Below, piece after piece: positions 3,186 through 50,949 of a stretch of 64,000 nt of DNA (position 1 is its first letter; each line of letters starts with the position of its first letter). Origin of the DNA: Cystobasidiomycetes sp. EMM_F5 (lineage: Eukaryota). The notes beneath the pieces were generated by a model that saw only the letters and a list, made by a program, of their open reading frames with translations, had not been told where the DNA came from and did not search any database. The stretch is taken from NCBI GenBank assembly GCA_051047955.1, contig JBPGPT010000001.1, positions 1,116,001-1,180,000 on the forward strand, in the 5' to 3' direction. The position numbers were made by a program, and so were the translations under genes.

Positions 3186-5368
3186 TTAAGCTGCGTCAAA
3201 GGCCACCAGTTCGTGGCGCTTGCCCGGCTTCGAGCATGGCTCTTTTGCGTCCTCTGGACTCATTTTTTTCGCTGCTGATGTCTTCGCCCGATGACCTATC
3301 GTTTCCGTCTGCACTGGAATCCTGAACTGTGACTCCAACTTCATCCTGCTTGGAATCGCGGACACTTGGCAAATAGTTGCCCTCTGATGAATTCGAAAAT
3401 TAGCAGAACATTTGATGAAACAAATGCGGTCGACTTACCGAGGTCTCTTCTGTCACCGGATGCAACAAAATCATACGCAAATTCTGAGAATTGGTTATCA
3501 GCCAGCTGTAGCAGAATTCCTGTATGCGATTGGCATTACCTCCGCATTCGACTTCGTCAAGTCCGCAAGTCTCGCCATCGTCCGTCGTACGGAATTGGCA
3601 GTAAGGGATGTGGTCAATGACGAACATAATGACGAAAGTTCCAACTGCAGTCCAGGCAGTTGCGAAGGCGATCCAAGCGAGCTGATACGGTACCTGCATC
3701 CAATGTCGGTCAAGCCAGCCACCTTCAATAACCAAGAAACCATCATTAGCGGCAACGCTAGACTGTGCGAAGATGCCCGTGAGGAGAAGACCAATCATTC
3801 CGCTGATGCCGTGGCATGAGAAGATGTCGAGCGTGTCGTCGAATTTGAACCAGATCTTTAGTCGCGTAAGAAGATTGGAGACAGCTGCTGCTACAGCTCC
3901 AATGAGGATGGACGCAGGTACTCCAACAAAACCAGCAGCTGGTGTGATGGCGACAAGGCCACTGATGAGACCCGTGCAGAATCCTACTACTGACCAACGA
4001 TGGAAGTGGCGCCAGTCCATGATCATCCAGACGACTCCTCCAAACACTCCCGCCATGAGCGTTGTGGTCACAGCCATTCCGGCTTTCAAGTTTGCTGCGA
4101 AGGTCGAGCCTCCATTGAATCCGCACCAACCGAAGACGAGGAGAACAGTGCCAAGGAAGACATGCGCTACCGAATGTGGAGCGTACTGAAGGCGATCTGT
4201 GCCCCAATGCTTGCGTTTGCCAAGATACAATGAGTATACGAGGCCTGTCACACCCGATGCAATTTCAACGGGACCCCCGCCAGCGTAATCGAGGACGCCA
4301 AGCTTGAAAGCCCATCCGTTGGCTTCAAATGAATTCATCATTAGCAATGGCAGGCAACCGATGTCAGACACGCCAAAATAACTTACGATTCCATACATCG
4401 TATGCAATGACATTGTAGACTAGCGTGCCCCAGACAAAGGTGAACGGGATCATCGGCCAAATTCGGCCACGCTCACAGGCAGCCCCGATAGCGATGGCGG
4501 GAACGAGCGCAGCAAATTGCTGCTCGTACACAGCGTACACAATAGCAGGAAGCTTGTTGTTCGCCGCGGCAGCAGGTTCGCCCAAGACTCCCCTGAAGCC
4601 GAAATACTTGAGGTTTCCAAAGAATGGTCCGCCAGTTTCAGTGAACGTGAGTGAGTAGCCCCAGAAGCTGCAAAACGCGACAAGGGCTCCTCAGCATTCC
4701 ACTGTTAAAGTCCGCTTGTAGTGACATACAACCACTCAAAGTAGATTACTGCCAGCGTAAGCATTGTTGCAATAAGCATATCTTCGACAGTGTTTCGGGT
4801 CAGAATTCTGATTTCGCTGCGTGTCTATTGCGACTCACGCAAAGCATTCTTTCGCCGGACCAAGCCAGAGTAACTGTAGGGAGTCGGCCGTCAGCTCGAG
4901 GAGGTTCTCAATCCTCGCGGTAGCCGTACAGATAACCAAGACCCGGAATCATGAGGAAGACTGGATGACCACATCAGTCAGTCTACTTCGGCTGCATGAT
5001 TGTCAGACCTCACCTAAAGCCGTGCATGTCACTGTAACCATGCGTGATGTAGAATTTAGCATTGAATAACAATTCGCATGCCCCTAGAGCATGAATACTG
5101 ACGGATCCACGCGATGTCGCCGGGGTTATAAGAAGCTATTATTGTTGCATCGTCATTTGTCCAGATAATATCGCTCCCTGTAAAGCCGGGAATCATCAGT
5201 CACCATGCTTCTGGCAGAAATTTCTGCAGTAAGCTCACCGGGGAGGATGAGACCCTCTGCCGGAGTTGTGGGACCCGAAGAGTTCAATATACCATAACTG
5301 ACAGTGGTCGTCGTTAAAACACGTCGCGCCGCTCTGAGGAAGAAAATTACTCACGTCAAATTGACCAT
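3186..5368 (-). CDS. MEP: Ammonium transporter (Amt/Mep family), many exons
   Basis: Spliced product: [105 protein letters not shown]. These are all Amt/Mep motifs. Confidence 0.95.
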
Positions 5369-38478: not shown

Positions 38479-38621
38479 GGTCAGCTGTACGGGCGTGTGT
38501 AGAAGGTCAGCGGGGTCCGCAGTCTCGACATCGCAGCAGAGTGTGCGACCATCAACCACCGTAGAGGTCAACCCGAGTTTGCCGTTTCTTTCCTGACTTG
38601 GGGACAATCTCCGCTTGAACG

Positions 38622-39418
38622 ATGCTGCTGTACATACAGACCAGCCTGACAGCTCGTGTACAGTCTACGAGCACTACTGCGACCAGCAGAGCATGCCACT
38701 CTGCCTTTGAGGCGAGAAGCTTCAGCTCAAACAAGCGCGTAAAGCCCGTCAGAGCTGCACCAGCCCAAGCAGACGTGACTTCTGGCAGCATACCTCCAAC
38801 TTCGTACAACAACGATGCAATGATCTCTCCGTCTGCCGTGTCGCAGCGTCCCAAGCGAAGGCTGCCTCTCCGCAAGCTGATATTTCCCCTGGCCCTAGCG
38901 AGCGCGGTCACTTCGCTAGCCATCCATCTGCGCAGCTCAAAGGACGATGTGAAGCAACTAGAGCGACGGCATGAAGCACAGCTATCAGTCCTGAACTCGC
39001 TCGTCTCGAGAATAAAGGCCGGCCAGATGCTAAGCGAGGCGCAGATTATGACCGAGTACGAGCGGGTTGGACTTGCAGAACGAAGCCAGCACACGCAACC
39101 GTCAGAGAAGCTGGGATGGAAGGAGATGCTGTTTGGCCGTGCGAGGACGGCAGAGCAAATACGATACGACGCCGAGGAAACGAAACGTTTGGAAGAAGGT
39201 CAGTCTTGCCTGCAGGCGTGCACAACGTCCCTTAGGCAGAGCTGACCTACTTTCATCCGATAGCATTCAATACAGCAGATGTAGCTACACCTGCGACTCA
39301 GAACACCCTAAATACAGCCCCTTTGCCAAAAAAGCAAATCAGTGGCCAAGACACTGTCCCTACAGCCGTCCCGGCAAAGCTTACTGCGTCCGGAACGAAG
39401 CCTGTCATTATTTATTAA
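38622..39418 (+). CDS. Hypothetical protein, probable mitochondrial inner-membrane single-pass coiled-coil protein
   Basis: Arg/Ser/Thr-rich presequence-like N-terminus, one TM (LIFPLALASAVTSLAIHL) and a coiled coil. One intron. Ends ..TKPVIIY* (TAA 39416-39418). Confidence 0.7.
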
Positions 39419-39495: not shown

Positions 39496-40527
39496 TCAAT
39501 GGGCCTGTTTAATGTCGGGACAAGCGTCTTTGATCATGAGATCCAGCACCAACATACTGCCTGGCTTGTGAGCAATGACGCGCCCTGGTATTTTGCTGTC
39601 CATGACGGCTACCTGGGGTGTTACGCCGCAGCCCCAGAACACGGGTATTTCGCCTTCGCGAAATTCGGAAGGATGTCCAAAATCCGGCTTGCCAATGTTG
39701 GCAATTCCGAGCTTTGTGGCACCCTGCGAATGTACATCAGATCGTCGTTACGAAGCTCGTAGGCTCCACATACATCGTATCCCCAAGCTACCGGTTCTCC
39801 GTGAGTTTCCACGTAGGGTCGCGTGATGTTCCTGACCTCCTCAATCTCGCTTGGCTTGTAGGGACGCATACTGACAACCATGCGTCCAGTGAAGGCTGTC
39901 AAGATCTGCGTGAGGTCTGGAATACTAGCACTCATGATGGGCTCTTACCTCCCGCCGCACATAGCGGGACTGCTGTCTTGAACATCGGAACGGTTCGCTC
40001 AATAGCGATTTGTCGAGGCATCAGACCAGCATCTATAAGTGCTGCTTCGAAAGTCTGGGAGCATCCGATCAAGAAAGCGACACTGTCGTCTCTCCACTCA
40101 TTCTCGATATTCGAGACTTCGTCAACGAGTACGCCGTCTTGGTAGATCATGTAGCCAGGTATATCTGAGCGAATATCGCAGTTGGCGGCTGCCCAAGAAG
40201 GTAGAATCGGATTGCCAGGCTCAGTTTCGACGATGAGAGGACACCTGTTTTTGTGCGATAGACAATGTAAGCAGGGCACAGGGCACAGCGGAAGACGTTC
40301 AGTGCAACGTACGGGACAGGGTTGCGCTTGCATAGCAACCGAAAATCATTTGCATATGCCCTGGGTAATATGAGAAGATTGGCCTGGACGTAGCCAGGAC
40401 AGTAGCCAGCTGTCGATGCACCGTGGAATTCGTCGGCTCGAATCTGACGCCGGAACAACTCTGCAGGAGTTGCTTTCTGGCCTCTTCTAGTCGAAGTAGC
40501 ATCATGTCCGTTGAGAAGGCCAACCAT
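39496..40527 (-). CDS. DUF1445 / D-glutamate-cyclase-like ('putative hydro-lyase', YcsI-like) protein
   Basis: TAGYCPGYVQANLLILP..ANDFRLLCKRNPVPCPL, IRSDIPGY, VAFLIGCSQTFEAAL, GRMVVSMRP, THGEPV, KPDFG, PVFWGCGVTPQ and AHKPGSMLVLD. Three introns. Confidence 0.9.
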
Positions 40528-40696
40528 TGTCGTAGATTCTCAGAGGATTGTCACTTTTGGCGTTCAAGGTGGCGATACGAGGCGACTTCAACGGGGCTTC
40601 GCTGAAAAGCCGGAGCAGATCTACTGATTCAGCGAGACACGCAAACAGACTTCCAAGGGCACGGTAAATGTCCCATTCTGCCAGTCCACCACAGCT

Positions 40697-40851
40697 CGGC
40701 GAGCAAGGCCGCTGAAGAGCGTGCAACTTCCTCGGATTTCGTTCGGAGGTTGCTGCCGAAGAGAATCCCGGGAGATCAGCGCATTCTTGGAGCGATAGGC
40801 GTTTTGGCTGCTATTCCCTCGGCTTTCAGTCTGAAAGGCGGGCATTGACCG
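40697..40851. promoter_or_regulatory. Candidate Zn2Cys6 binding sites in the DUF1445/TF divergent promoter
   Basis: CGG-N9-CCG at 40697-40711 and 40744-40758 (the latter TTCGG..CCGAA). CGG-N7-CCG at 40839-40851. Confidence 0.45.
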
Positions 40852-40906
40852 GACTTAGGCCTGTCAGCCATCCCGCTGGGCACCGTACGGGCACCGTACG
40901 AGCTCC

Positions 40907-43833
40907 ATGCCAGCGCCGTCGGTGAGGTCGCATCATCAAGTCGTACATGGCCGGCAAGAGCAGTCGCAAGAGCCATCTGGAGATCGCGAAGACGATGTTG
41001 CTAGCCATATTCTGGCATTATCTGGACGCAGTGGTGCGCGGATGAATTTCACAGCTCCCTCAGACGATGGATCCGCTTTGCGTACAAACGGCAACCTCTT
41101 CACCTTCCAACCTCTGACGTCTTCGACCGCAAGCCGGGAAATCTTGACGACGACAAACAGTCAAGCTGACGCATCTAACTCATCTGGTGTCCCTGCTGAC
41201 GAGGACAGTCGACCACGTAAACAGCGGAAGACTACACATGTCAGTAAAGCTTGCCAACACTGCAGGCGTCGGAAGTCGCGGTGCGATGGTGCCAGGCCGT
41301 CGTGCTCCACTTGTGTTGTCTTCGGACAAGAATGCTCGTACGATCCTGCTCAAGACGGTCGCAAGCCTCCGTCAAGAGACTACGTAAGATCACTCGAAGA
41401 ACGCCTTCGGGTGCTTGAGGCTGCAATACAAGATAAATACACGTCCGACTGCAGTTCATTCTCACCTTCTCAAGCCGAAGACGCGCAGCCTCTTCCCAGG
41501 GATGCGTTACCGCCAGTTTCGTCCGGAGGACTCTTCAAGGTGATGAACAAAGATTATGTGCTGGCGTATGGATCGACGAGTAGCTATGTTAGTGGAATGG
41601 GTCTAAGTCACAAACTCGTCGTGTGCTTAATATAATGTGTTTTTAGATGCACGTTGAAGATGCCGGGCAGCAAGCAAACGGTCCTCATCATCATAACGGA
41701 AGCAATGTTGTGAACGACGATTCATCTTTGGCGGACGAAACGGAACTGTTCTCCCAGCACACCGTCGCTTCCATCGATGATTGGGCGTCTGCCAGTCGGA
41801 TGCTCCCCGCAGCTCTGCCCAGAGACCTTCACGATGAATTTCTATCATATTTCTTCACTTACGTCAATTGTTTTACCCTCTTTGTTGTAAGTCATGTAAA
41901 TGTTGCGCTTGGTTTGTACGGATTCTGAAAACCCCGCTTAGGATGAAGCGCGATTCTACCGGGACCTCAAGGTTTGTACATCAAATGGTCGGCCGGAGTC
42001 GGCTACCGCATGGTACTCGCCGCTTCTGCATAACGTCCTACTCGCCGTTGGATGCAAGTACAGCAAAGACCCTCGTCTGCACGACCTGGATTTCTCCTCT
42101 GCCCCGAGCAACACCTCGCGAAATGCGTCAATACCACTGAAGGAGCGCGGTCTCGCTTTCGCGCAGACTGCGGTCCAGTATCTGGAGCGAGAGATGAGCG
42201 CCCCTTTTTTGAGTACTGTGATCGGCTGCATGCTTCTCGGAACATACTATCAGAACAGTGCTAAGCCTACCTTAGGTTGGGTGTACGAGGGAATTGGTGT
42301 CCGACTTGCGCTAGTCCTGGGTCTTCATATGAAAGGCACTGATTTGGCAGCGCGCGGCATCATAAGTCACGAGCTCAAAAGAGCAAGAGACTATTGCTGG
42401 CTTACGGTGGGTATACAGGACAAGTTATGGTCAGTTGTAATGAGCAGGGTGGCATGCTGCCCGAGCAATAATTTGACCCGTTTCTGCAGGTCGTATACGC
42501 ATGGACGCCTCCCAGCTATACGTAGCATCGATACCGAGAATATTGATCCACCTGCGCCGTCTCCGAGCATGGACACTGTGCCGTGGAAGTCGTTCCCTGA
42601 GGGAGTGACGCTACCTGGCTTACGAAGCACTATTCAAGTCAATACTGCCAAGTTGACGGGTTTGGCCGAGCGTATTCATACTCTCAACTACTCCATGCGC
42701 ACTGTCAAGCCTATGCAGTATCAATTGGAACGCTCGCAAGTGTACATGGAGCTCATGGCATGGCATCGCGCGCTGCCGTCGTCGTGTAGCATTGGGCTTA
42801 CCTCGACTCAGCTGTATACACCACACTGCATCAATCTCAATATCTACTTTTGGTATCTCCAGATACTACTGTATCGCACTCATTTCCGCTTGCCCGGTGG
42901 CCCTCAGCCGAATGAGCCAAGTCCATCCGCTAGCTCGATTTGCGTTACAGCAGCGTGAGTCGTACTCGCAATTCTCAATCGTACTCGGAATATTGAGAAT
43001 TCCGACTAACGGTCGCATGGCTTAGACACCGGATTTTAAATCTCCTGCGGATGTGGCACAATCAGCATGACCTGGCTCGTTCAGGGACCCCCAGTCTACC
43101 AAATATCACATTCTGCACCGGCACTATCTTCATCCTCTCTATAGCCAACGAAGCAGACCGTGCGAAGCGGTCGATGGAGAATCTCGAAGAGACCATACAC
43201 TTGTAACTATCTGCAACAGATCAGCCTCTGCGACTCGAGCTAATTGTCTTCTCTGTCATCGACAGTCTCAGGGAGATTGGAAGAAATTCCTCCTTCGCAA
43301 CGCTCAGTGCAGATGCGCTTCAGCACATGGCTCGGGAATGGCTACCGGCGCCAGAGAGTCCTGTGCCGGTGACTCGAGCGCTTAAGGAGGGACAAGATGT
43401 TCTCACGTCTCAGCTGGCGCAGCTCAACGATCCTACCTCCGCGCTTTCGAAGGTGCTGGCGAGTATGGGATGGACGCCGCCGAGTGCCAAACAGCAGGCG
43501 GATTCGAGAGACGGACATAGCCCACATGGTCTATATAATTCGGCTGAAGGAGGGTCCGTGCACCAAATGACAACGGAGTACGCCAGTGTACCTGCTCAGG
43601 GGCTACAGTCTCTCCTATCACCATCTTCAGAAAACTTGTTCGACACCATCGCGCCCGTTGCTCTTGACGCATCGGGATCGAATAGCTTGAATGACATTGC
43701 TAGCAATCCATTCAGCGCCCATCTTAACCCGGAGGACTTCACATTCAGTCTCCATCCTTCGTTTTATAGTAGTTTTGACGATCAGTTTTCAAGCTTATTT
43801 CCTCAGCATTATGGTGGGAATGCATTGTTGTAA
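40907..43833 (+). CDS. Zn(II)2Cys6 fungal transcription factor with middle homology region
   Basis: ACQHCRRRKSRCDGARPSCSTCVVFGQECSY, coiled coil YVRSLEERLRVLEA, fungal TF domain (GWVYEGIGVRLALVLGLH..QDKLWSYTHGR) and an acidic/aromatic C-terminal activation-like tail. Start is 40907 or 41042. Confidence 0.93.
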
Positions 43834-43977
43834 AGGCGCTTGTTTCATAAGTTCAATTACAATTCAGGACGAAGATCAGATCTATTGAGAAATACCATTT
43901 GACTTCCGTATATCCCTTTGTTGTGGATTGATTCCCTTTCACCCGTATAAAACAAAGACCGCTACACTCTAATTTAA

Positions 43978-45740
43978 TCAAAGCATGTAAAGATAATGAG
44001 GGTTCTTGTCTCCAAGTTCAGGTTGATCTTTCGCTCCAGCCGCAACAGCCGCTCTCTTTTGAGCATTGCGCCAGTTATAATACCAGAGCATAAAGCCGAT
44101 GGACATCATAGCGACGCTATGGACTGCTATGGCGATGCCAAACCCTTTGGCGTAGCGAGGACCGTCCATGTATATGAAACCAATAGCCGCGCCGGAGCTG
44201 TTGCCAACAAGCTGCATGAGTCCAACAGCAGCTGCGCGCTTGTAGTGTGGAGAGTGATTTGCCTGGGTCCAGCCAACATTCAAGCCTGCGAAGCCGTACA
44301 TCAGCGAGACAGCCCAGACACTAGGCTTGTTATGCAAGAACGTACCGACAGGAGCATACATGCCCAGCGCGACAATAAATAAAGCAAAGTATCTGACGCC
44401 AGACGGATTGCCCACGCTACACAATATAATGTAGCCAACAAGGGTTACAAACATGTTGCCAAGAATGAAGATACCGCGCTTCTTCAGTTTGTCGGAAAAG
44501 TAGGCCTGTATGACGAACGAAATTGCTGCAACGAAGTAGACTGGGACGGTCAGGATCTGACTAGTCACCGTAGAATATCCGAAGTCTGAGATGAAAATGG
44601 GCATGAATGTGGAAATGCCGTATAATGCGACGTCGATGCCGAATTGAGCGATCCCATGCGTGTAGGTAGTGATGTCGGTCCAAGCCGCTCTAACGTACTT
44701 GAATTCAAGCTTGTCAGTAGCAGAGTACTCGCCAGTGTTTGCCTCGTATCTTTGAGTGCATAGATCCTTCTCACTCTTAGACAAAAACCAGGCGGTGTTT
44801 GCAGCGGATGGAATCCAGAAGAAAACAAACGGTGCGAAAGCGAGCGTGAGTATACCCTCTACTATATAGATCCAGCTCCAAGCAGCGATGCTGCCTGTTG
44901 TAATATGGGAGAGGCCAAAGGCTGGTAAAGAGGAGTTATGTGCGTGAGCCTACGCTCATGGTTCACGACAGAATTCGTGCTACTGCATGAAATACGTACC
45001 CACTAGTCCACCAAAAGAACCTGATAGTGCGGCAAAAACGAAAATGTATGAGAGTCGGCGGCCCAGTTCCTCGCGTTTGTAAATCATCGAATAGTAGACT
45101 ACGATGCAAGGGAAGACGCCAGCCTCTGTGACACCAAGTAGCAGGCGACATACGACAAGAGAGGAGAAGCCGGTGGTAAATGCCGTGCCCACAGTGATCG
45201 CGCCAAAGCCAAGCATGGCTATACTCATTGTCCATCTGGGTGTGAGGACTTTGATGAACAGAGGCCAGATGCACTCGAAGACTACGTAGGTAGCGTAAAT
45301 AACAGAAATCGCAGCTGCCTTCTCCTTGGCCGTCAGATGAAGGGCTGCAGTCATTCCAGCAGTCATTGCATTGCCGACTGCCCACACAAGTCAGCAAGGA
45401 ATTGCCCACATTTTATGTATGAGCGACTCACTATTGCCTCGGTCAAGGAAGCAGAGACAATAGATCATTCCGAGGACACTGTCGAAACAAGATTAGGAGG
45501 CTTTCGCAGTGCCTGTCCAGCTGTGTCCTTACGGCTGTAAGTAGATGTCACTACGAGAGAGACAAAACGTCGTCAGCGAGGGAGGGGATCCTGAGCGCAA
45601 GACAGGCTTCGTCCTTACAGCTTTCGAAGAACTTTCTTCTCCTCAACGGGGTCAATGTAGTCGGCGGCAGGTACGGTTGCGATCTTAGACTCATAGTCGT
45701 ACTTGGACATGTCCGCTACGTCGGAAGAAGCGGAAGACAT
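43978..45740 (-). CDS. MFS transporter, anion:cation symporter (Dal5/Tna1-like) family
   Basis: EEKKVLRKL, CFLDRGNIGNA, RLLLGVTEAGVFP, YKREELGRR, WSWIYIVEGILT, LTVPVY, FSDKLKKRG and HYKRAAAVG. Confidence 0.92.
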
Positions 45741-45920
45741 GACGGACACGACTGCGATTTGAACTTTGATGATGCGGGAGCTGCGATGAGTTTGCGCTCT
45801 GCAAGTGAAGATGACAAGCTGCAGGAGGCTGCAAGGAAAGAGAGAGACCAGGCAACGAGTTATCCCGCGATCTTGCACCTCTTATGGGGCTGCAGCGGGT
45901 CTCTTCATGTTCTGGGAGGC

Positions 45921-46028
45921 CGGCATTTTCCCGTGTTTCCGTCTCGTGAAATGAAGATAAGACTCGGGAAAGCAGCAGAAACAGTGCAAAGCATCGCGGC
46001 TTTGTCGATCCGTCGGACGCTAATCCCG
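45921..46028. promoter_or_regulatory. Candidate Zn2Cys6 binding sites in the MFS/oxoprolinase divergent promoter
   Basis: CGG-N7-CCG at 45921-45933, and CGG-N10-CCG at 45997-46012 directly followed by CGG-N9-CCG at 46014-46028. Confidence 0.45.
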
Positions 46029-46192
46029 GTCTGACTTTCGCGATCGGGATTGCAACGGGCTGTACCGGGTTTTTCGGAACTGTGCTGCTTTCGGCTTCTA
46101 GCTCGGTCGTGGTCGCAAATGGTCGTTGAGCCAGCCAGCAGCGAACGCAAGTCAAGCCTCTCTCTTGTCTCTCCTCATTACACTCGTGCAAC

Positions 46193-49100
46193 ATGTCGCC
46201 TACTAACGCTACCAGCAATCTCATACGCATAGCCATCGGTAAGTCTGGCGCATACATAACGAGCTAAGTGCCATGGCATTATTGATAGCTGATACGATCC
46301 TCATCCTTCTTCATGCTATCGTTTGATGTACTGATTAGATCGCGGCGGTACTTTTACCGACTTCCATGCTTCTGCATCCGGAAGACCCGATGTCGTGCTC
46401 AAGCTGCTATCCGTGGATCCTCAAAACTACGCAGACGCCCCCACTGAAGGCATTCGCCGCATTCTAGAAGACTTTACAGGCAAGAGCATACCTAGAGGCG
46501 TCAAGATCCCGCTAGACAGCGTCGAAAGCGTTCGTGTCGGTACCACCGTAGCCACTAACGCTCTGCTCGAAAGGAAGGGCGAGCGATGCGCACTATTGGT
46601 TTCGAAAGGCTGCAGAGATGTTCTTAAGATTGGAATGCAGGGCGAGTGGTTTACAGCATCCGTCTAGGAATATAACTCCTGACATCAAGGATCCACACAG
46701 CCCGGCCGGACATCTTTGATTTGTCGATAAAGAAGCTCGGTCTGCTGTATGAACGCGTGGTCGAGCTGGATGAGCGCGTCACACTTGAGGCGGCCGCCGA
46801 AGATCCAAATCAGCCTGATATCAATATAGAGGAGGATACCAATCTCGTAAAGGGGTCCACAGGCGAAGTTGTCCGCATTCTACAGAGGCCGTCGGAATCA
46901 AGCATAAACGCACATCTAGAAGATCTGCAAAAAGACGGCTTCCGCTCTATTGCTCTGGCTCTTCTGCATTCATACACATACCAAGAGCATGAGAGACTCG
47001 TAGCTAAATTAGCTCGCGCAAAAGGCTTTTCCGTTTCAGTTTCCCATGAATTACAACCTCTCATTCGTCTAGTATCGCGAGCAAACTCGACAGTCGCGGA
47101 TTCCTACCTGACACCAATCACGCGACGCTACATCGAAAGTTTTGCGAGCGGATTCGACGGTGGCCTGGAAGCATTCGGAGCCAAACTGTGAGCGTTGGAA
47201 ACAAGACTGCTTTAACACCTGCCTATATCTGACTCTATCGTTGGCAGCCTCCTTATGCAGAGTGACGGGGGCCTTACTACCTGGAATAATTTCACAGGGC
47301 TTCGCGCAGTTTTATCAGGACCAGCTGGTGGAGTGATTGGCTTCTCTAAGACTTGCTTTGACGAGTCGGAGCGCACTCCTCTTATCGCTGTAGATATGGG
47401 TGGTACCTCTACCGATGTCTCTCGATTTGATGGCGAGCTAGATCAGTAAGCGGGAATCCTGCATGATAGCGAGTTTTCGTATATACTGCTCTTTAACACC
47501 AGCGATCCGCAGTACCTTTGAATCTATCACAGCTGAGGTCATCATCTCCGCACCTCAACTCAACATCAATACCGTTGCCGCAGGGGGTGGATCGCGACTC
47601 TTCTGGAGAAACGGAATGTTCATGGTCGGCCCAGAATCTGCATCGGCGCATCCCGGGCCTACGTGCTATCGTAAAGGCGGTCCTCTAGCCATTACCGACG
47701 CTAATCTTCAGCTTGGCAGACTTTTGCCAGACGCATTGTAAGCTCGTTCTACTGATGAAGTATCGACAAGCGTTGTTGCTAACTGTCTCAAACCCTTCTC
47801 GAATACAGCCCGAAGATCTTCGGCCCCAAGGAGAACGAGGCGCTCGACGTAGAAGCGACAAACAAGGCTTTCGTGGACTTGGCGCACACTATCAACACAT
47901 CCAAGGGCGAAGATAGCAGACTATCCGCTGAAGATATCGCTCTCGGATTCCTTAGAGTAGCGGTCGAGGCTATGTGCCGACCAGTCAGATCATTGACGGA
48001 AGCTCGAGGGTATGCAGCTTCAGCACACAATCTTGTTCTCTTCGGTGGTGCAGGAGGTCAAGTCGCGTGTGCGATCGCTCGTACTCTGGGTATTGCAAGA
48101 ATTCTGTAAGTCACGCAAATGGCAATGTGAGCGTGGAAAGCCCGCTGATGCCATCGTTATCATCGTCCGCACGCTTAGTATCCCGCGCTTCTCTTCCATC
48201 TTGAGTGCATACGGTATGGCATTATCGGATGTGACTGTCGACCTGCAGGATGCTGTTCATGCGACGCTGCAGTCAAGCGGCAACAAGGGCCTTCAAGGTC
48301 ACGTCGATTCTCTAACCAAGAGGGCTGTCTCAGCGTTGAAGGACCAAGGCTTCACAGACGACTTCATCAATGTCGAGGTTTTCTTCAATTGCCACTTTGC
48401 GCAAGCCACAACGAACCTCATGATCAAGTTGCAGCCCGGTCTTGATCTTGTAAAAGCCTTCCACGACAAGCATCACGAGCTATTCGGTTTCATCTTGCAT
48501 GGTCGCGATGTCCTCGTCGACAGTGTCCGCGTTCGCGGCGTCGGTCTTGGTCCGTCAAGCGAGACAACAACACCATACGCCGAGCTTGCAACTATCCCCC
48601 TGACCTTGTTCCAAGGAGACTGCAAGAAACACAATGTCTATTTCGAGAAAGTTGGCTGGCAGACGTCCAGACTAATCGCGCTGGATGACTTGTCGCCTGG
48701 TCACCAGGTCCTAGGTCCTGCCATTATCTTCGACAAGACGCAAACTATCTTGGTGGAGCCCGACTTCATTGCAACGACTTTGTCTAAGCATGTCATCCTT
48801 GATAAGCGTGACGACGGTCTTCTTGCCAAAAAAGGCTCGGGTATCACTGGTATCGACTTGGTGCAACTTAGCGTGTTCTCTCATCGGTATGTTTGCGTTC
48901 ATGCAGCAAGCGCGAACTGACCAACTTAAATACTTGTTTGGCAGCTTCATGAGCATTGCCGAGCAGATGGGCGACACGCTGCAGCAGACTAGCATTAGTA
49001 CAAACATCAAAGAGCGTCTAGATTAGTAAGTACAAACAATCGCATACATACGAATTTACCAGCTGATGATGGCTTTACGCGTAAAGCTCATGCGCTCTCT

Positions 49101-50949
49101 TCTCTCCGGACGGTGGCCTCGTTGCCAATGCACCGCACATTCCTGTTCATCTCGGCGCAATGTCAAAGGCAGTGGCCCACCAAGCCGAATACTGGGGAGA
49201 TTCCTTGGAAGAGGGAGACGTGCTTCTCTCCAACCATCCGTATGTTATCTAGTCCATCATCGGGTGCACGGACTGACTTTGCGATGTAGCATCGCGGGAG
49301 GGTCACACCTGCCAGATTTGACGGTAATCACGCCGGCGTTCCACAATGGCAAGATTGTTTTCTGGACAGCCTCGAGAGCGGTATGTACTCACGCTGCGCT
49401 GTTGTATTGGGAAAGCTCATGAGTGTGTGTCCCTCTGTCGTCTTCCACTAGCATCATGCAGATATCGGAGGTGTTCGAGCAGGTAGCATGCCTCCGTCGT
49501 CCAAATACATTTGGCAGGAAGGTGCACAGTTCAAGACGTTCAAACTCGTCAGCAAGGGCCGCTTCCTCGAAAGAGAAGTCGTCAAGGCACTGTCTCACGA
49601 TCCGGCTCAATACCCAGGCTGCAGCGGCACTCGGACGCTCGGAGACAATCTATCCGACTTGCGCGCTCAATGCAGTGCGAACCATCGAGGCGCAATGCTG
49701 ATTCGTGCCTTGGTGCAAGAATTCACCTTGGAGACTGTGCAAAAGTACATGCTGGCTATTCAGGATACTGCTGAGAAAGCTGTCCGAACACTGTTGAAAG
49801 ACTTTTGCAAGAAGTTTGATGGCGCTCCACTCACTGCAGTCGACTATTTGGACGACGGCTCCGAGATCCACCTCAACATTCAGGTAAGAAGATTTGCTGG
49901 CTTGCAGCGAGATTTGCTGATTGTGTTTCCTCACCGCCGCAAGATTGATCGCGAGACCGGTCGAGCTGTTTTCGATTTCACTGGAACTTCCGAACAAGTG
50001 TATGGAAATCTAAATGCACCAACTGCCATCGTGTACTCTGCTATTCTTTACGTTCTGCGGTCTCTTATACATTCTCCGATACCCCTTAATCAGGGCTGCT
50101 TGGCACCCATCAAGATTATAGTACCACCCGGTACCCTGATCTCCCCTACGCACGATGTCGCTACAGTCGCTGGCAATGTCGAGACGTCAGCTCGCCTGGC
50201 GGATGTCATATTGAAGGCCTTCCAAGCCGCCGGAGCATCGCAGGGTACTTGTAACAACTTCACCTTTGGTTACGGTGGAAAGAACCAAACGACGGGAGAG
50301 GTGACACAGGGCTTCGGCTACTACGAGACCATCTGTGGTGGAGCGGGAGCTGGCGAAGGCTGGCACGGGCAAAGCGGGTGCGTAGTGAGGCGCTCCAGAG
50401 AGTCAATACAGTGTGCTGATAATCCCAACAATAGCGTGCATTGTCATATGACAAACACCGCCATCGGAGACACTGAAATCATCGAGAGAAGGTATCCTGT
50501 CATTGTGCACGAGTTCGCTGTGCGGCCAGGGACAGGAGGCAAGGGCAAATGGAACGGCGGATGCGGTGTGATCCGCGACTTCGAGGTGAGTGCAAGAGAC
50601 GAGATGTGACATATTGCAACTCACGAATGATCTGTCATTGCTTGGCAGTTTCGACGAGCAATCGATGTGGCCATCCTGTCCGAACGACGTGTTGTCGCGC
50701 CTTACGGAATGAAAGGAGGTCTCCCAGGACAGCGCGGACTGAATCTATGGATGCGGAAACTAGATGATGGCTCGTATCAGGCTGTCAATGTTTCCGGCAA
50801 GGCTGAATTTACTGTGAAAGTTGGCGACCGCTTCGTCATTAGTAAGTCAAAGACATGCAGCATCACACTGCCCGACACGAGCTGACCTCATCATTTATGT
50901 AGATACGCCAGGAGGCGGTGGATATGGCGCTCCGGAGGGGAAAGAGTGA
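46193..50949 (+). CDS. OXP1: ATP-dependent 5-oxoprolinase (fused hydantoinase A+B type)
   Basis: [118 protein letters not shown] and TPGGGGYG. Many short introns. Confidence 0.95.

Follow-up and report, generated by a model that had tools for sequence, protein, structure and literature searches.

A four-gene fungal cluster joining a DUF1445 protein to a 5-oxoprolinase, a candidate module for pyroglutamate utilisation

What would a fungus take up and assimilate with a DUF1445 protein encoded three genes away from a 5-oxoprolinase, and what would the DUF1445 protein contribute? The question is raised by positions 39496-50949 of the window, by which we mean the whole 64,000-nucleotide stretch of Cystobasidiomycetes sp. 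EMM_F5 analysed here (assembly GCA_051047955.1, contig JBPGPT010000001.1, positions 1,116,001 to 1,180,000). Four intron-bearing genes lie there as two head-to-head pairs, the first joining a DUF1445 gene to a gene for a Zn2Cys6 transcription factor, the second joining a major facilitator superfamily (MFS) carrier of the anion:cation symporter (ACS) type to a 5-oxoprolinase (OXP). We read the four genes as a nitrogen-scavenging catabolic module through which 5-oxoproline (pyroglutamate), or a very close relative of it, would be converted to glutamate, a reading to which we give about an even chance of being right.

The locus and its four proteins

The arrangement of four contiguous genes as two divergent pairs between unrelated flanks, first proposed from the letters alone, was borne out by spliced gene models and by Pfam searches of the flanks (Table 1), and the predicted boundaries, 39496 and 50949, coincide exactly with the DUF1445 and OXP stop codons. 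When 20 exon-sized reading frames from positions 39496-50885 were searched against Pfam, 17 matched, and the four family assignments of the original prediction stand. On the minus strand, D-Glu_cyclase (PF07286) matched three of the pieces (E 1e-11 to 1e-22) and MFS_1 matched two; the plus strand has Zn_clus and Fungal_trans, and also ten pieces that carry in succession Hydant_A_N, Hydantoinase_A, Hydant_A_C and Hydantoinase_B. Spliced models were built on GT-AG junctions (one GC-AG) chosen to keep the frame open; that of OXP starts with the ATG at 46193 and its stop codon ends at 50949. Since spliceosomal introns interrupt all four genes and GC content is uniform (0.47-0.57 over 34-56 kb), we regard them as resident genes. 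By a rough estimate, which assumes one DUF1445 gene, one or two OXP genes and several thousand genes in all, the chance that DUF1445 and OXP would fall three genes apart or less is about 1 in 500-1000.

In the DUF1445 protein, three exons each score 45-81 bits against PF07286 (cut-off 25), jointly covering profile positions 1-143, and two exons match NCBIfam NF003969, a 'putative hydro-lyase'. Identity to bacterial members is 42-54% over nearly the full length. Across an alignment of 91 rows, made up of the window's four exons, two full-length proteins from databases and the DUF1445 stretches of 85 bacterial loci (genomes and metagenomes), column identity averages 58%. Of the 75 columns conserved at 90% or more in a set of 87 bacterial rows, the window protein is identical at 69, three near-invariant cysteines among them, which implies that it would be an active DUF1445 enzyme. 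An exhaustive search of representative proteins for DUF1445 returned 1083 clusters at E <= 0.001. The only solved relatives, 3DB9 and 2PIF, are both labelled UPF0317 (family profile E ~1e-111 to 1e-115). A model of a bacterial member (P0001; model m6d459e10a0f5, predicted local distance difference test score, pLDDT, 94.9) was compared with the PDB by Foldseek and with 48,161 chains by VIA-align, and matched only two UPF0317 entries and the NrpR-like entry 3NEK, all others having Z <= 4.6. These Foldseek and VIA-align listings contained no Asp/Glu racemase, a result that speaks neither for nor firmly against a racemase-like fold. Entry 3NEK, the NrpR-like nitrogen repressor MJ0159, is the sole structural neighbour outside the family (Z 9.8 over 168 aligned residues, root-mean-square deviation 4.1). 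NrpR senses 2-oxoglutarate, another five-carbon dicarboxylate.

DUF1445 clusters returned by an ESM Atlas search were all bacterial, and a metagenome scan with exon 2 of the window gene gave 10 loci, all 46-55% identical, of which those examined (L005, L007, L008 and L009) have bacterial-type neighbourhoods. A look-up of protein clusters among the relatives returned Penicillium, diatom and gammaproteobacterial members. Transcripts of the diatom Ditylum brightwellii include a stand-alone DUF1445 (cluster of P0231); with such diatom proteins, the family in eukaryotes extends more widely than fungi and vertebrates. Six library fragments (P0125, P0126, P0142, P0155, P0163 and P0226) align to the window protein only up to residues 170-174, the site of its second intron, which suggests that this intron position is shared by other eukaryotic genomes in which the genes were called without splicing.

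The OXP is a single chain whose domain order is that of the eukaryote-type fused enzyme. Residues 7-1268 are 62% identical to residues 2-1270 of a Desarmillaria protein, and basidiomycete matches, some of them named 5-oxoprolinase by UniRef (names that are annotation), are 60-62% identical end to end; residues 15-1275 align end to end with a fused OXP of Polaromonas at 40% identity. In the OXP tree the window protein falls within a 15-row clade (support 100) whose other 14 rows are all Basidiomycota, which marks the host as a basidiomycete and not a filamentous ascomycete. The same tree holds several ascomycete paralogue clades, and some basidiomycetes have two copies. A PDB sequence search with the window OXP found no solved 5-oxoprolinase of the fused HyuA-HyuB type; the only solved relatives, N-methylhydantoinase and caprolactamase, are distant (E 1e-9 to 1e-10). 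Judged from these alignments, the protein is a putative but typical member of the fungal family annotated as 5-oxoprolinase, and not of the hydantoinase, caprolactamase or carboxylase branch. Its second intron (46642-46700) is apparently of the GC-AG kind (GCGAGT ... ACACAG) with a CTGAC branch site, the alternative being a 44-nt GT-AG intron with a weak donor. Two further OXP introns (49884-49943 and 50378-50434) and one in the MFS gene (44286-44345) are stop-free multiples of three, so that a plain open reading frame (ORF) keeps 19-20 extra residues; these retained introns appeared as insertions relative to a bacterial homologue.

For the carrier, the best NCBIfam model is TIGR00893 (2A0114), with 75 and 57 bits on the two exons tested; since exons alone were submitted, these scores fall short of the cut-off of 395 set for a whole protein. 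P0275, a public fragment identical to part of the MFS, carries the NCBI name 'High-affinity nicotinic acid transporter'. Model and name together support the earlier placement of the carrier, which probably belongs to the ACS branch (Dal5/Tna1; TC 2.A.1.14), and the characterised carriers of this family, Dal5 and Tna1, are importers. The MFS model aligns end to end with fungal MFS proteins of 481-490 aa, its residues 1-482 being 50% identical to residues 1-487 of an Armillaria protein. Its orthologue group, at 42-50% identity compared with about 32% for other family members, is narrow, with 15 proteins at E 1e-10 or better. P0275 itself (267 aa; window 43978-44949, minus strand) begins inside the gene and retains the 60-nt in-frame intron 44345-44286.

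The Zn2Cys6 factor matches PF00172 Zn_clus (42.7 bits) and PF04082 Fungal_trans (36.3 bits), and three alternative splice models are all open. Each divergent promoter contains one CGG-N7-CCG site, at 40839-40851 (within the 17-nt stretch 40836-40852) and at 45921-45933 (stretch 45917-45933), and the two stretches agree at 13 of 17 positions. Twelve such sites occur in the 64 kb, two of them in the divergent promoters (831 bp, 1.3% of the length), where about 0.16 would be expected. Because the motif scan had covered 16 spacings and several orientations, the shared site is a candidate binding site, to be taken as a lead only and not as evidence. The promoter pair shares a single 11-mer with one mismatch, fewer than shuffled sequences do (mean 3.8).

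Upstream of the cluster lie Med12 and a small unassigned ORF, and downstream an oxysterol-binding protein and, further off, importin beta. Positions 38619-39242 (plus strand), where the DUF1445 gene is met tail to tail, hold a candidate ORF of 207 aa that has a single hydrophobic stretch and matches no Pfam family. At 3403-4690 (minus strand), 35 kb upstream, the window has a further nitrogen-uptake gene, encoding an ammonium transporter (Ammonium_transp, E 3e-69), which shows no sign of belonging to the cluster. Among 195 window frames scanned with Pfam (20 + 129 + 46), none matched LamB_YcsF (PxpA) or DUF4392 (GLUCM-like_C, PF14336).

Table 1. Genes, exons and intergenic regions of the cluster, in window positions
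Feature	Position	Strand	Details
DUF1445 / D-Glu_cyclase (UPF0317, 'putative hydro-lyase') gene	39496..40527	-	286 aa, 4 exons, ATG 40527, stop ends 39496
DUF1445 exons	40527-40313, 40244-39949, 39895-39774, 39723-39496	-	open spliced model
DUF1445/transcription-factor divergent intergenic region	40528..40906		379 bp, from gene models
Zn2Cys6 transcription factor	40907..43833	+	~892 aa, 5 exons; first junction and start codon uncertain
Zn2Cys6 factor exons (approximate)	40907-41587, 41647-41886, 41942-42954, 43026-43202, 43266-43833	+	spliced model
Tail-to-tail gap, Zn2Cys6 factor to MFS gene	43834-43977		144 bp
MFS carrier, putative anion:cation symporter (Dal5/Tna1-like) branch	43978..45740	-	482 aa, 6 exons
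MFS exons	45740-45619, 45550-45533 (18-nt micro-exon), 45478-45432, 45377-45000, 44921-44346, 44285-43978	-	spliced model
MFS/OXP divergent intergenic region	45741..46192		452 bp, from gene models
Predicted fused HyuA/HyuB-type ATP-dependent 5-oxoprolinase (OXP1/OPLAH-like)	46193..50949	+	1281 aa, 15 exons, 14 introns of 50-100 nt

DUF1445 and lactam hydrolases in bacteria and fungi

We assembled 85 bacterial DUF1445 loci, comprising the best 80 of at least 587 genome matches and 5 of 10 metagenome contigs, clustered the six-frame ORFs within 6 kb of DUF1445 and named recurrent clusters with Pfam. Since 30 of the 85 loci have less than 3 kb on at least one side, the neighbour counts are lower bounds. 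An ATP-dependent lactam hydrolase of either type was present in at least 41 of the loci: PxpA/LamB_YcsF in at least 31, the HyuA/B-OXP type in at least 11 (10 by clustering and 1 more by tblastn), and both types in one. Importer-type transporters (Liv-type ATP-binding cassette (ABC) systems, DctP or MFS) occurred in at least 32 loci, at least 16 of the 85 combining a lactam hydrolase with an importer. DUF4392 was found in at least 19, Nramp in at least 9 and a class IV aminotransferase in at least 6, while 31 loci had neither a lactam hydrolase nor DUF4392, 13 of these having short flanks. The functional tie between DUF1445 and 5-oxoprolinase that had been proposed is borne out in bacteria by the 41 loci, and the association of bacterial DUF1445 with ATP-dependent lactam hydrolases of two unrelated kinds and with uptake systems is well supported. 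The presence of two unrelated types of oxoprolinase beside bacterial DUF1445 points in the same direction as the fungal cluster.

In the bacteria the genes follow one another closely on one strand. Four Vulcanimicrobiota loci have an ABC importer, HyuA, HyuB and DUF1445, and two Burkholderiales loci (L076 and L086) a Liv-type ABC system, DUF1445, DctP and a fused OXP that is 40-41% identical to that of the window. In the actinobacterial locus L048 (a Thermoleophilaceae metagenome-assembled genome), DUF1445 is followed by an MFS gene divergent from OXP, the latter two being oriented as in the window. Bordetella DctP6/7, reported to be encoded near an oxoprolinase gene of the eukaryote type, has a solved structure in complex with 5-oxoproline (PMC13274462). 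The original prediction had described the fungal cluster as eukaryote-type parts converging on a bacterial layout. This proved too simple: bacteria also pair DUF1445 with eukaryote-type HyuA/B-OXP (11 of 85 loci), and the fungal arrangement is therefore not simply convergence on the pxpABC layout.

Bacterial DUF1445 is often directly followed by a DUF4392 (GLUCM-like_C) gene (19 of 85 loci; for example at 9842-11500 in L008 and 9824-11518 in L009). This is the domain order of the mammalian D-glutamate cyclase, and the animal enzyme thus looks like a fused bacterial gene pair. PxpA and DUF4392 occur together in six loci (L017, L055, L068, L070, L080 and L083), all six of which also have a class IV aminotransferase, a hint of a D-glutamate route in Clostridia and Rheinheimera. 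The class IV family includes D-amino-acid transaminases, and with DUF1445, DUF4392, PxpA and such an aminotransferase in the same six loci, a D-amino-acid link stays plausible.

Among fungi, Saitozyma podzolica (Tremellomycetes) has OXP (EHS25_000907; P0004, 60.5% identical) and MFS (EHS25_000908; P0282, 44%) under consecutive locus tags, both records giving a contig of 2,705,151 bp, so the linkage is not confined to the present genome. The prediction that it would be conserved elsewhere thus holds for OXP and MFS in Saitozyma but not for DUF1445 and the OXP paralogue compared in Penicillium, where they are linked in none of eight genomes. Linkage in fungi recurs but in a patchy way, the usual pattern for catabolic clusters in this kingdom. 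In Schizosaccharomyces pombe, systematic names put OXP and MFS on the same cosmid at a distance of three genes; cosmid c5H10 presumably follows directly on c11D3, in which case the DUF1445 gene would stand right beside the MFS gene, and SPAC11D3.14c we take to be a second oxoprolinase. The S. pombe genes SPAC5H10.01 (DUF1445), SPAC11D3.18c (Tna1-like MFS) and SPAC11D3.15 belong to a nine-gene set reported to be lowered specifically by high copper (PMC1929147), SPAC11D3.15 being tabulated as 5-oxoprolinase (PMC5983419). SPAC5H10.01 and SPAC11D3.18c are both down in a klf1 mutant (PMC3805531), and nitrogen limitation raises SPAC11D3.18c together with the adjacent zinc-finger gene SPAC11D3.17 (PMC4614384). 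In Aspergillus fumigatus, the DUF1445 gene AFUA_5G01690 is among the 20 most down-regulated genes of a gprK mutant, along with oligopeptide, nitrate and ammonium transporters (PMC5008803), and a Trichoderma harzianum homologue ranks in the top ten for induction on Botrytis cell walls at 72 h (PMC10055783). In the accessible text of the literature searched, no fungal DUF1445-OXP cluster is described, and the papers naming SPAC5H10.01 do not, in their accessible text, treat the S. pombe DUF1445, MFS and OXP genes as a cluster.

Whether the cluster came from bacteria as a block was considered and rejected, given that the neighbouring HyuA/B proteins are so distant, the MFS is unmatched, all four genes have introns and GC is even. 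A quick maximum-likelihood tree (88 rows) places the window DUF1445 in a set of 9 rows (Shimodaira-Hasegawa-like approximate likelihood-ratio support, SH-aLRT, 97), 5 of which have a HyuA/B context; the long branch of the window protein (1.14) makes this placement tentative. The HyuA/B genes beside these closest bacterial relatives are 31-32% identical to the window OXP and score best on caprolactamase models, while matches of 39-41% to OXP come from Burkholderiales and Pirellulales loci. The window MFS found no match in the 85 bacterial loci at E 1e-5, and the MFS of L048 is of another branch (2A0115). With the evidence for block transfer negative, the recurrence of these genes looks like repeated selection for the same combination.

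A proposed pathway and its alternatives

In the pathway we propose, the ACS-family carrier would import the anionic lactam and the fused HyuA/HyuB-type 5-oxoprolinase would open its ring with ATP, yielding glutamate. The DUF1445 hydro-lyase would work on the same five-carbon skeleton without ATP: it could form the lactam from a precursor that OXP cannot use, such as D-glutamate or a gamma-glutamyl compound, or it could interconvert forms of the lactam. The Zn2Cys6 factor, divergent from DUF1445, would turn the set on.

Several observations weigh against this pathway, whose weak point is the DUF1445 step. To our knowledge, 5-oxo-D-proline, the product of D-glutamate cyclase, is not a substrate of characterised 5-oxoprolinases, so that no obvious linear path leads from DUF1445 to OXP. 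The architecture of DGLUCY, in which DUF1445 is joined or adjacent to DUF4392, is absent from the window, with no PF14336 match in the 195 frames. The OXP may be a copy dedicated to the cluster, or it may be the cell's only, housekeeping 5-oxoprolinase. The Zn2Cys6 factor is tied to the other three genes by position only, and the shared CGG-N7-CCG site fails correction for the number of patterns examined. In all eight Penicillium genomes with locus tags for both, thousands of tags separate DUF1445 (P0263 cluster) from OXP (P0034 cluster), and the contigs that bear them differ in size, a comparison that covers one OXP paralogue; Cryptococcus sp. DSM 104549 has its MFS orthologue on one contig and the listed OXP on another.

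The mammalian enzyme bears directly on the DUF1445 step. Mouse DGLUCY turns D-glutamate into 5-oxo-D-proline, which humans excrete (PMC5339696). The original prediction was right that this enzyme contains DUF1445 and makes 5-oxo-D-proline; it also has DUF4392 as a second domain, and the accessible text of the report does not assign the catalytic domain (PMC5339696). With the catalytic domain unassigned and DUF4392 missing from the window, D-glutamate cyclase activity (EC 4.2.1.48) cannot be assumed for the window protein.

The same architecture might serve a different substrate among the lactams and cyclic amides (2-pyrrolidinone, a hydantoin or a substituted pyroglutamate, for example), with DUF1445 handling its product or a precursor of it. 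This would suit the range of HyuA/B-type enzymes, which include the caprolactamase and N-methylhydantoinase that are the only solved, if distant, relatives of OXP, as well as the low identity (31-32%) and caprolactamase-like scores of the HyuA/B proteins beside the closest bacterial DUF1445 and the narrow MFS orthologue group of 15 proteins. Paralogous lactam hydrolases of Pseudomonas putida are reported to be specific for butyrolactam, valerolactam or 5-oxoproline, each for one (bioRxiv 10.1101/2021.12.09.472016), and Aspergillus nidulans lamA and lamB are lactam-catabolism genes regulated by AmdR (PMC8016842). We nevertheless think a different substrate unlikely. The window OXP is 62% identical to proteins partly named 5-oxoprolinase and sits among basidiomycete copies and not on a divergent branch; its 40-41% identity to Burkholderiales fused OXPs leads to enzymes encoded beside DctP-type proteins, a type shown to bind 5-oxoproline; and no LamB_YcsF gene was found in the window frames scanned. 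Equally, the MFS-OXP pair could be the only functional unit, with the DUF1445-transcription factor pair adjacent by chance or for some other pathway. OXP-MFS in Saitozyma is indeed the only fungal adjacency directly shown, the eight Penicillium genomes keep DUF1445 apart from the OXP paralogue examined, and 31 bacterial loci lack both a lactam hydrolase and DUF4392. This would leave the 41 bacterial loci with one of two unrelated lactam hydrolase types unaccounted for, along with the shared regulation of DUF1445, MFS and OXP in S. pombe; the prior odds of such proximity (three genes or less) by chance would be low, and 13 of the 31 'empty' loci have short flanks. We judge such a split quite improbable.

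Disposal of D-glutamate offers a further explanation, in which DUF1445 would cyclise toxic D-glutamate to 5-oxo-D-proline, the MFS would export the product, and OXP would be a housekeeping enzyme of the glutathione cycle. The DGLUCY reaction and the excretion of its product by humans (PMC5339696) speak for it, as does the class IV aminotransferase in all six bacterial loci holding PxpA and DUF4392. Import by the carrier, and not export, would nonetheless be expected by analogy with Dal5 and Tna1, uptake systems including binding proteins accompany DUF1445 in 32 of 85 bacterial loci, the S. pombe and A. fumigatus counterparts behave in the published data as nitrogen-scavenging genes, and the window's 195 scanned frames are without DUF4392. 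We therefore consider disposal very unlikely.

The nitrogen-scavenging module for 5-oxoproline can be extended to a broader proposal, which we put forward tentatively, as possible though doubtful: that throughout the domains of life DUF1445 is the missing partner of 5-oxoprolinases, making or stereo-converting 5-oxoproline without ATP. It might then act, for instance, as a D-glutamate cyclase, as a racemase of 5-oxoproline or as a lyase resembling gamma-glutamyl cyclotransferase.

Relation to known systems and significance

Among the nearest described arrangements is the Bacillus subtilis operon ycsF(pxpA)-ycsG-ycsI-kipI(pxpB)-kipA(pxpC), in which, as in the window, the DUF1445 gene (ycsI, downstream of ycsG) stands beside an ATP-dependent 5-oxoprolinase (PMC10448178). 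The original prediction correctly placed ycsI in the operon containing ycsG; the transporter YcsG is reported to import Mn2+, not the substrate (PMC10448178). The B. subtilis enzyme is the non-homologous three-subunit PxpABC, and a bacterial repressor within the operon takes the place of the divergent promoters and Zn2Cys6 factor of the window. Similar in content are the bacterial operons of importer, DUF1445, in some cases DctP, and HyuA/B-OXP (L076 and L086; Vulcanimicrobiota L014, L016 and L026; L048), which combine the same three functions but use importers of the Liv-type ABC, tripartite ATP-independent periplasmic (TRAP)-type DctP or 2A0115-branch MFS kinds.

S. pombe has the same three gene families, reported as co-regulated, with a nearby regulator, SPAC11D3.17, that is a C2H2 zinc finger and not a Zn2Cys6 protein. 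In A. nidulans, lamA encodes an OXP homologue, lamB gave the LamB/YcsF family its name, and the substrate is 2-pyrrolidinone. Likened here by description, lamA-lamB is a characterised fungal lactam-catabolism locus that, like the window, involves a Zn2Cys6 activator, AmdR (PMC8016842), but its partner protein LamB is not a DUF1445 protein and its regulator is unlinked. Corynebacterium glutamicum pxpR-pxpTABC is a self-regulated set of carrier, oxoprolinase and regulator that supports growth on 5-oxo-L-proline (PMC13274462); all its parts are non-homologous to those of the window, and the accessible text of that paper contains neither of the terms DUF and ycsI. Mammalian DGLUCY (9030617O03Rik / C14orf159) shares the DUF1445 domain and provides the family's only biochemical activity (PMC5339696), but it is a two-domain mitochondrial protein (DUF1445, then DUF4392), whereas the window protein is a stand-alone DUF1445. 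Relative to these systems, the window cluster draws its carrier from a different family, its fused oxoprolinase is of the eukaryote type, and its regulator is fungal.

No reaction has been assigned to the stand-alone members of DUF1445/UPF0317, a family of strong sequence conservation whose sole biochemical anchor is the two-domain mammalian enzyme, which is linked to the handling of D-glutamate in the heart. A compact fungal cluster would give a genetically tractable handle on the substrate and reaction of DUF1445, the more so as S. pombe co-regulates the same three functions and a deletion collection exists for that yeast. The cluster would also describe how a fungus takes up and uses pyroglutamate, a capacity worked out only recently even in bacteria (PMC13274462). 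If DUF1445 is indeed an ATP-independent partner of 5-oxoprolinases, D-glutamate, D-pyroglutamate or gamma-glutamyl compounds could be channelled into L-glutamate by way of the ATP-driven opening of the ring, an explanation would also be at hand for the N-terminal domain of human DGLUCY, and the fungal cluster would represent a eukaryotic route for assimilating compounds released from decaying bacterial cell walls and proteins.

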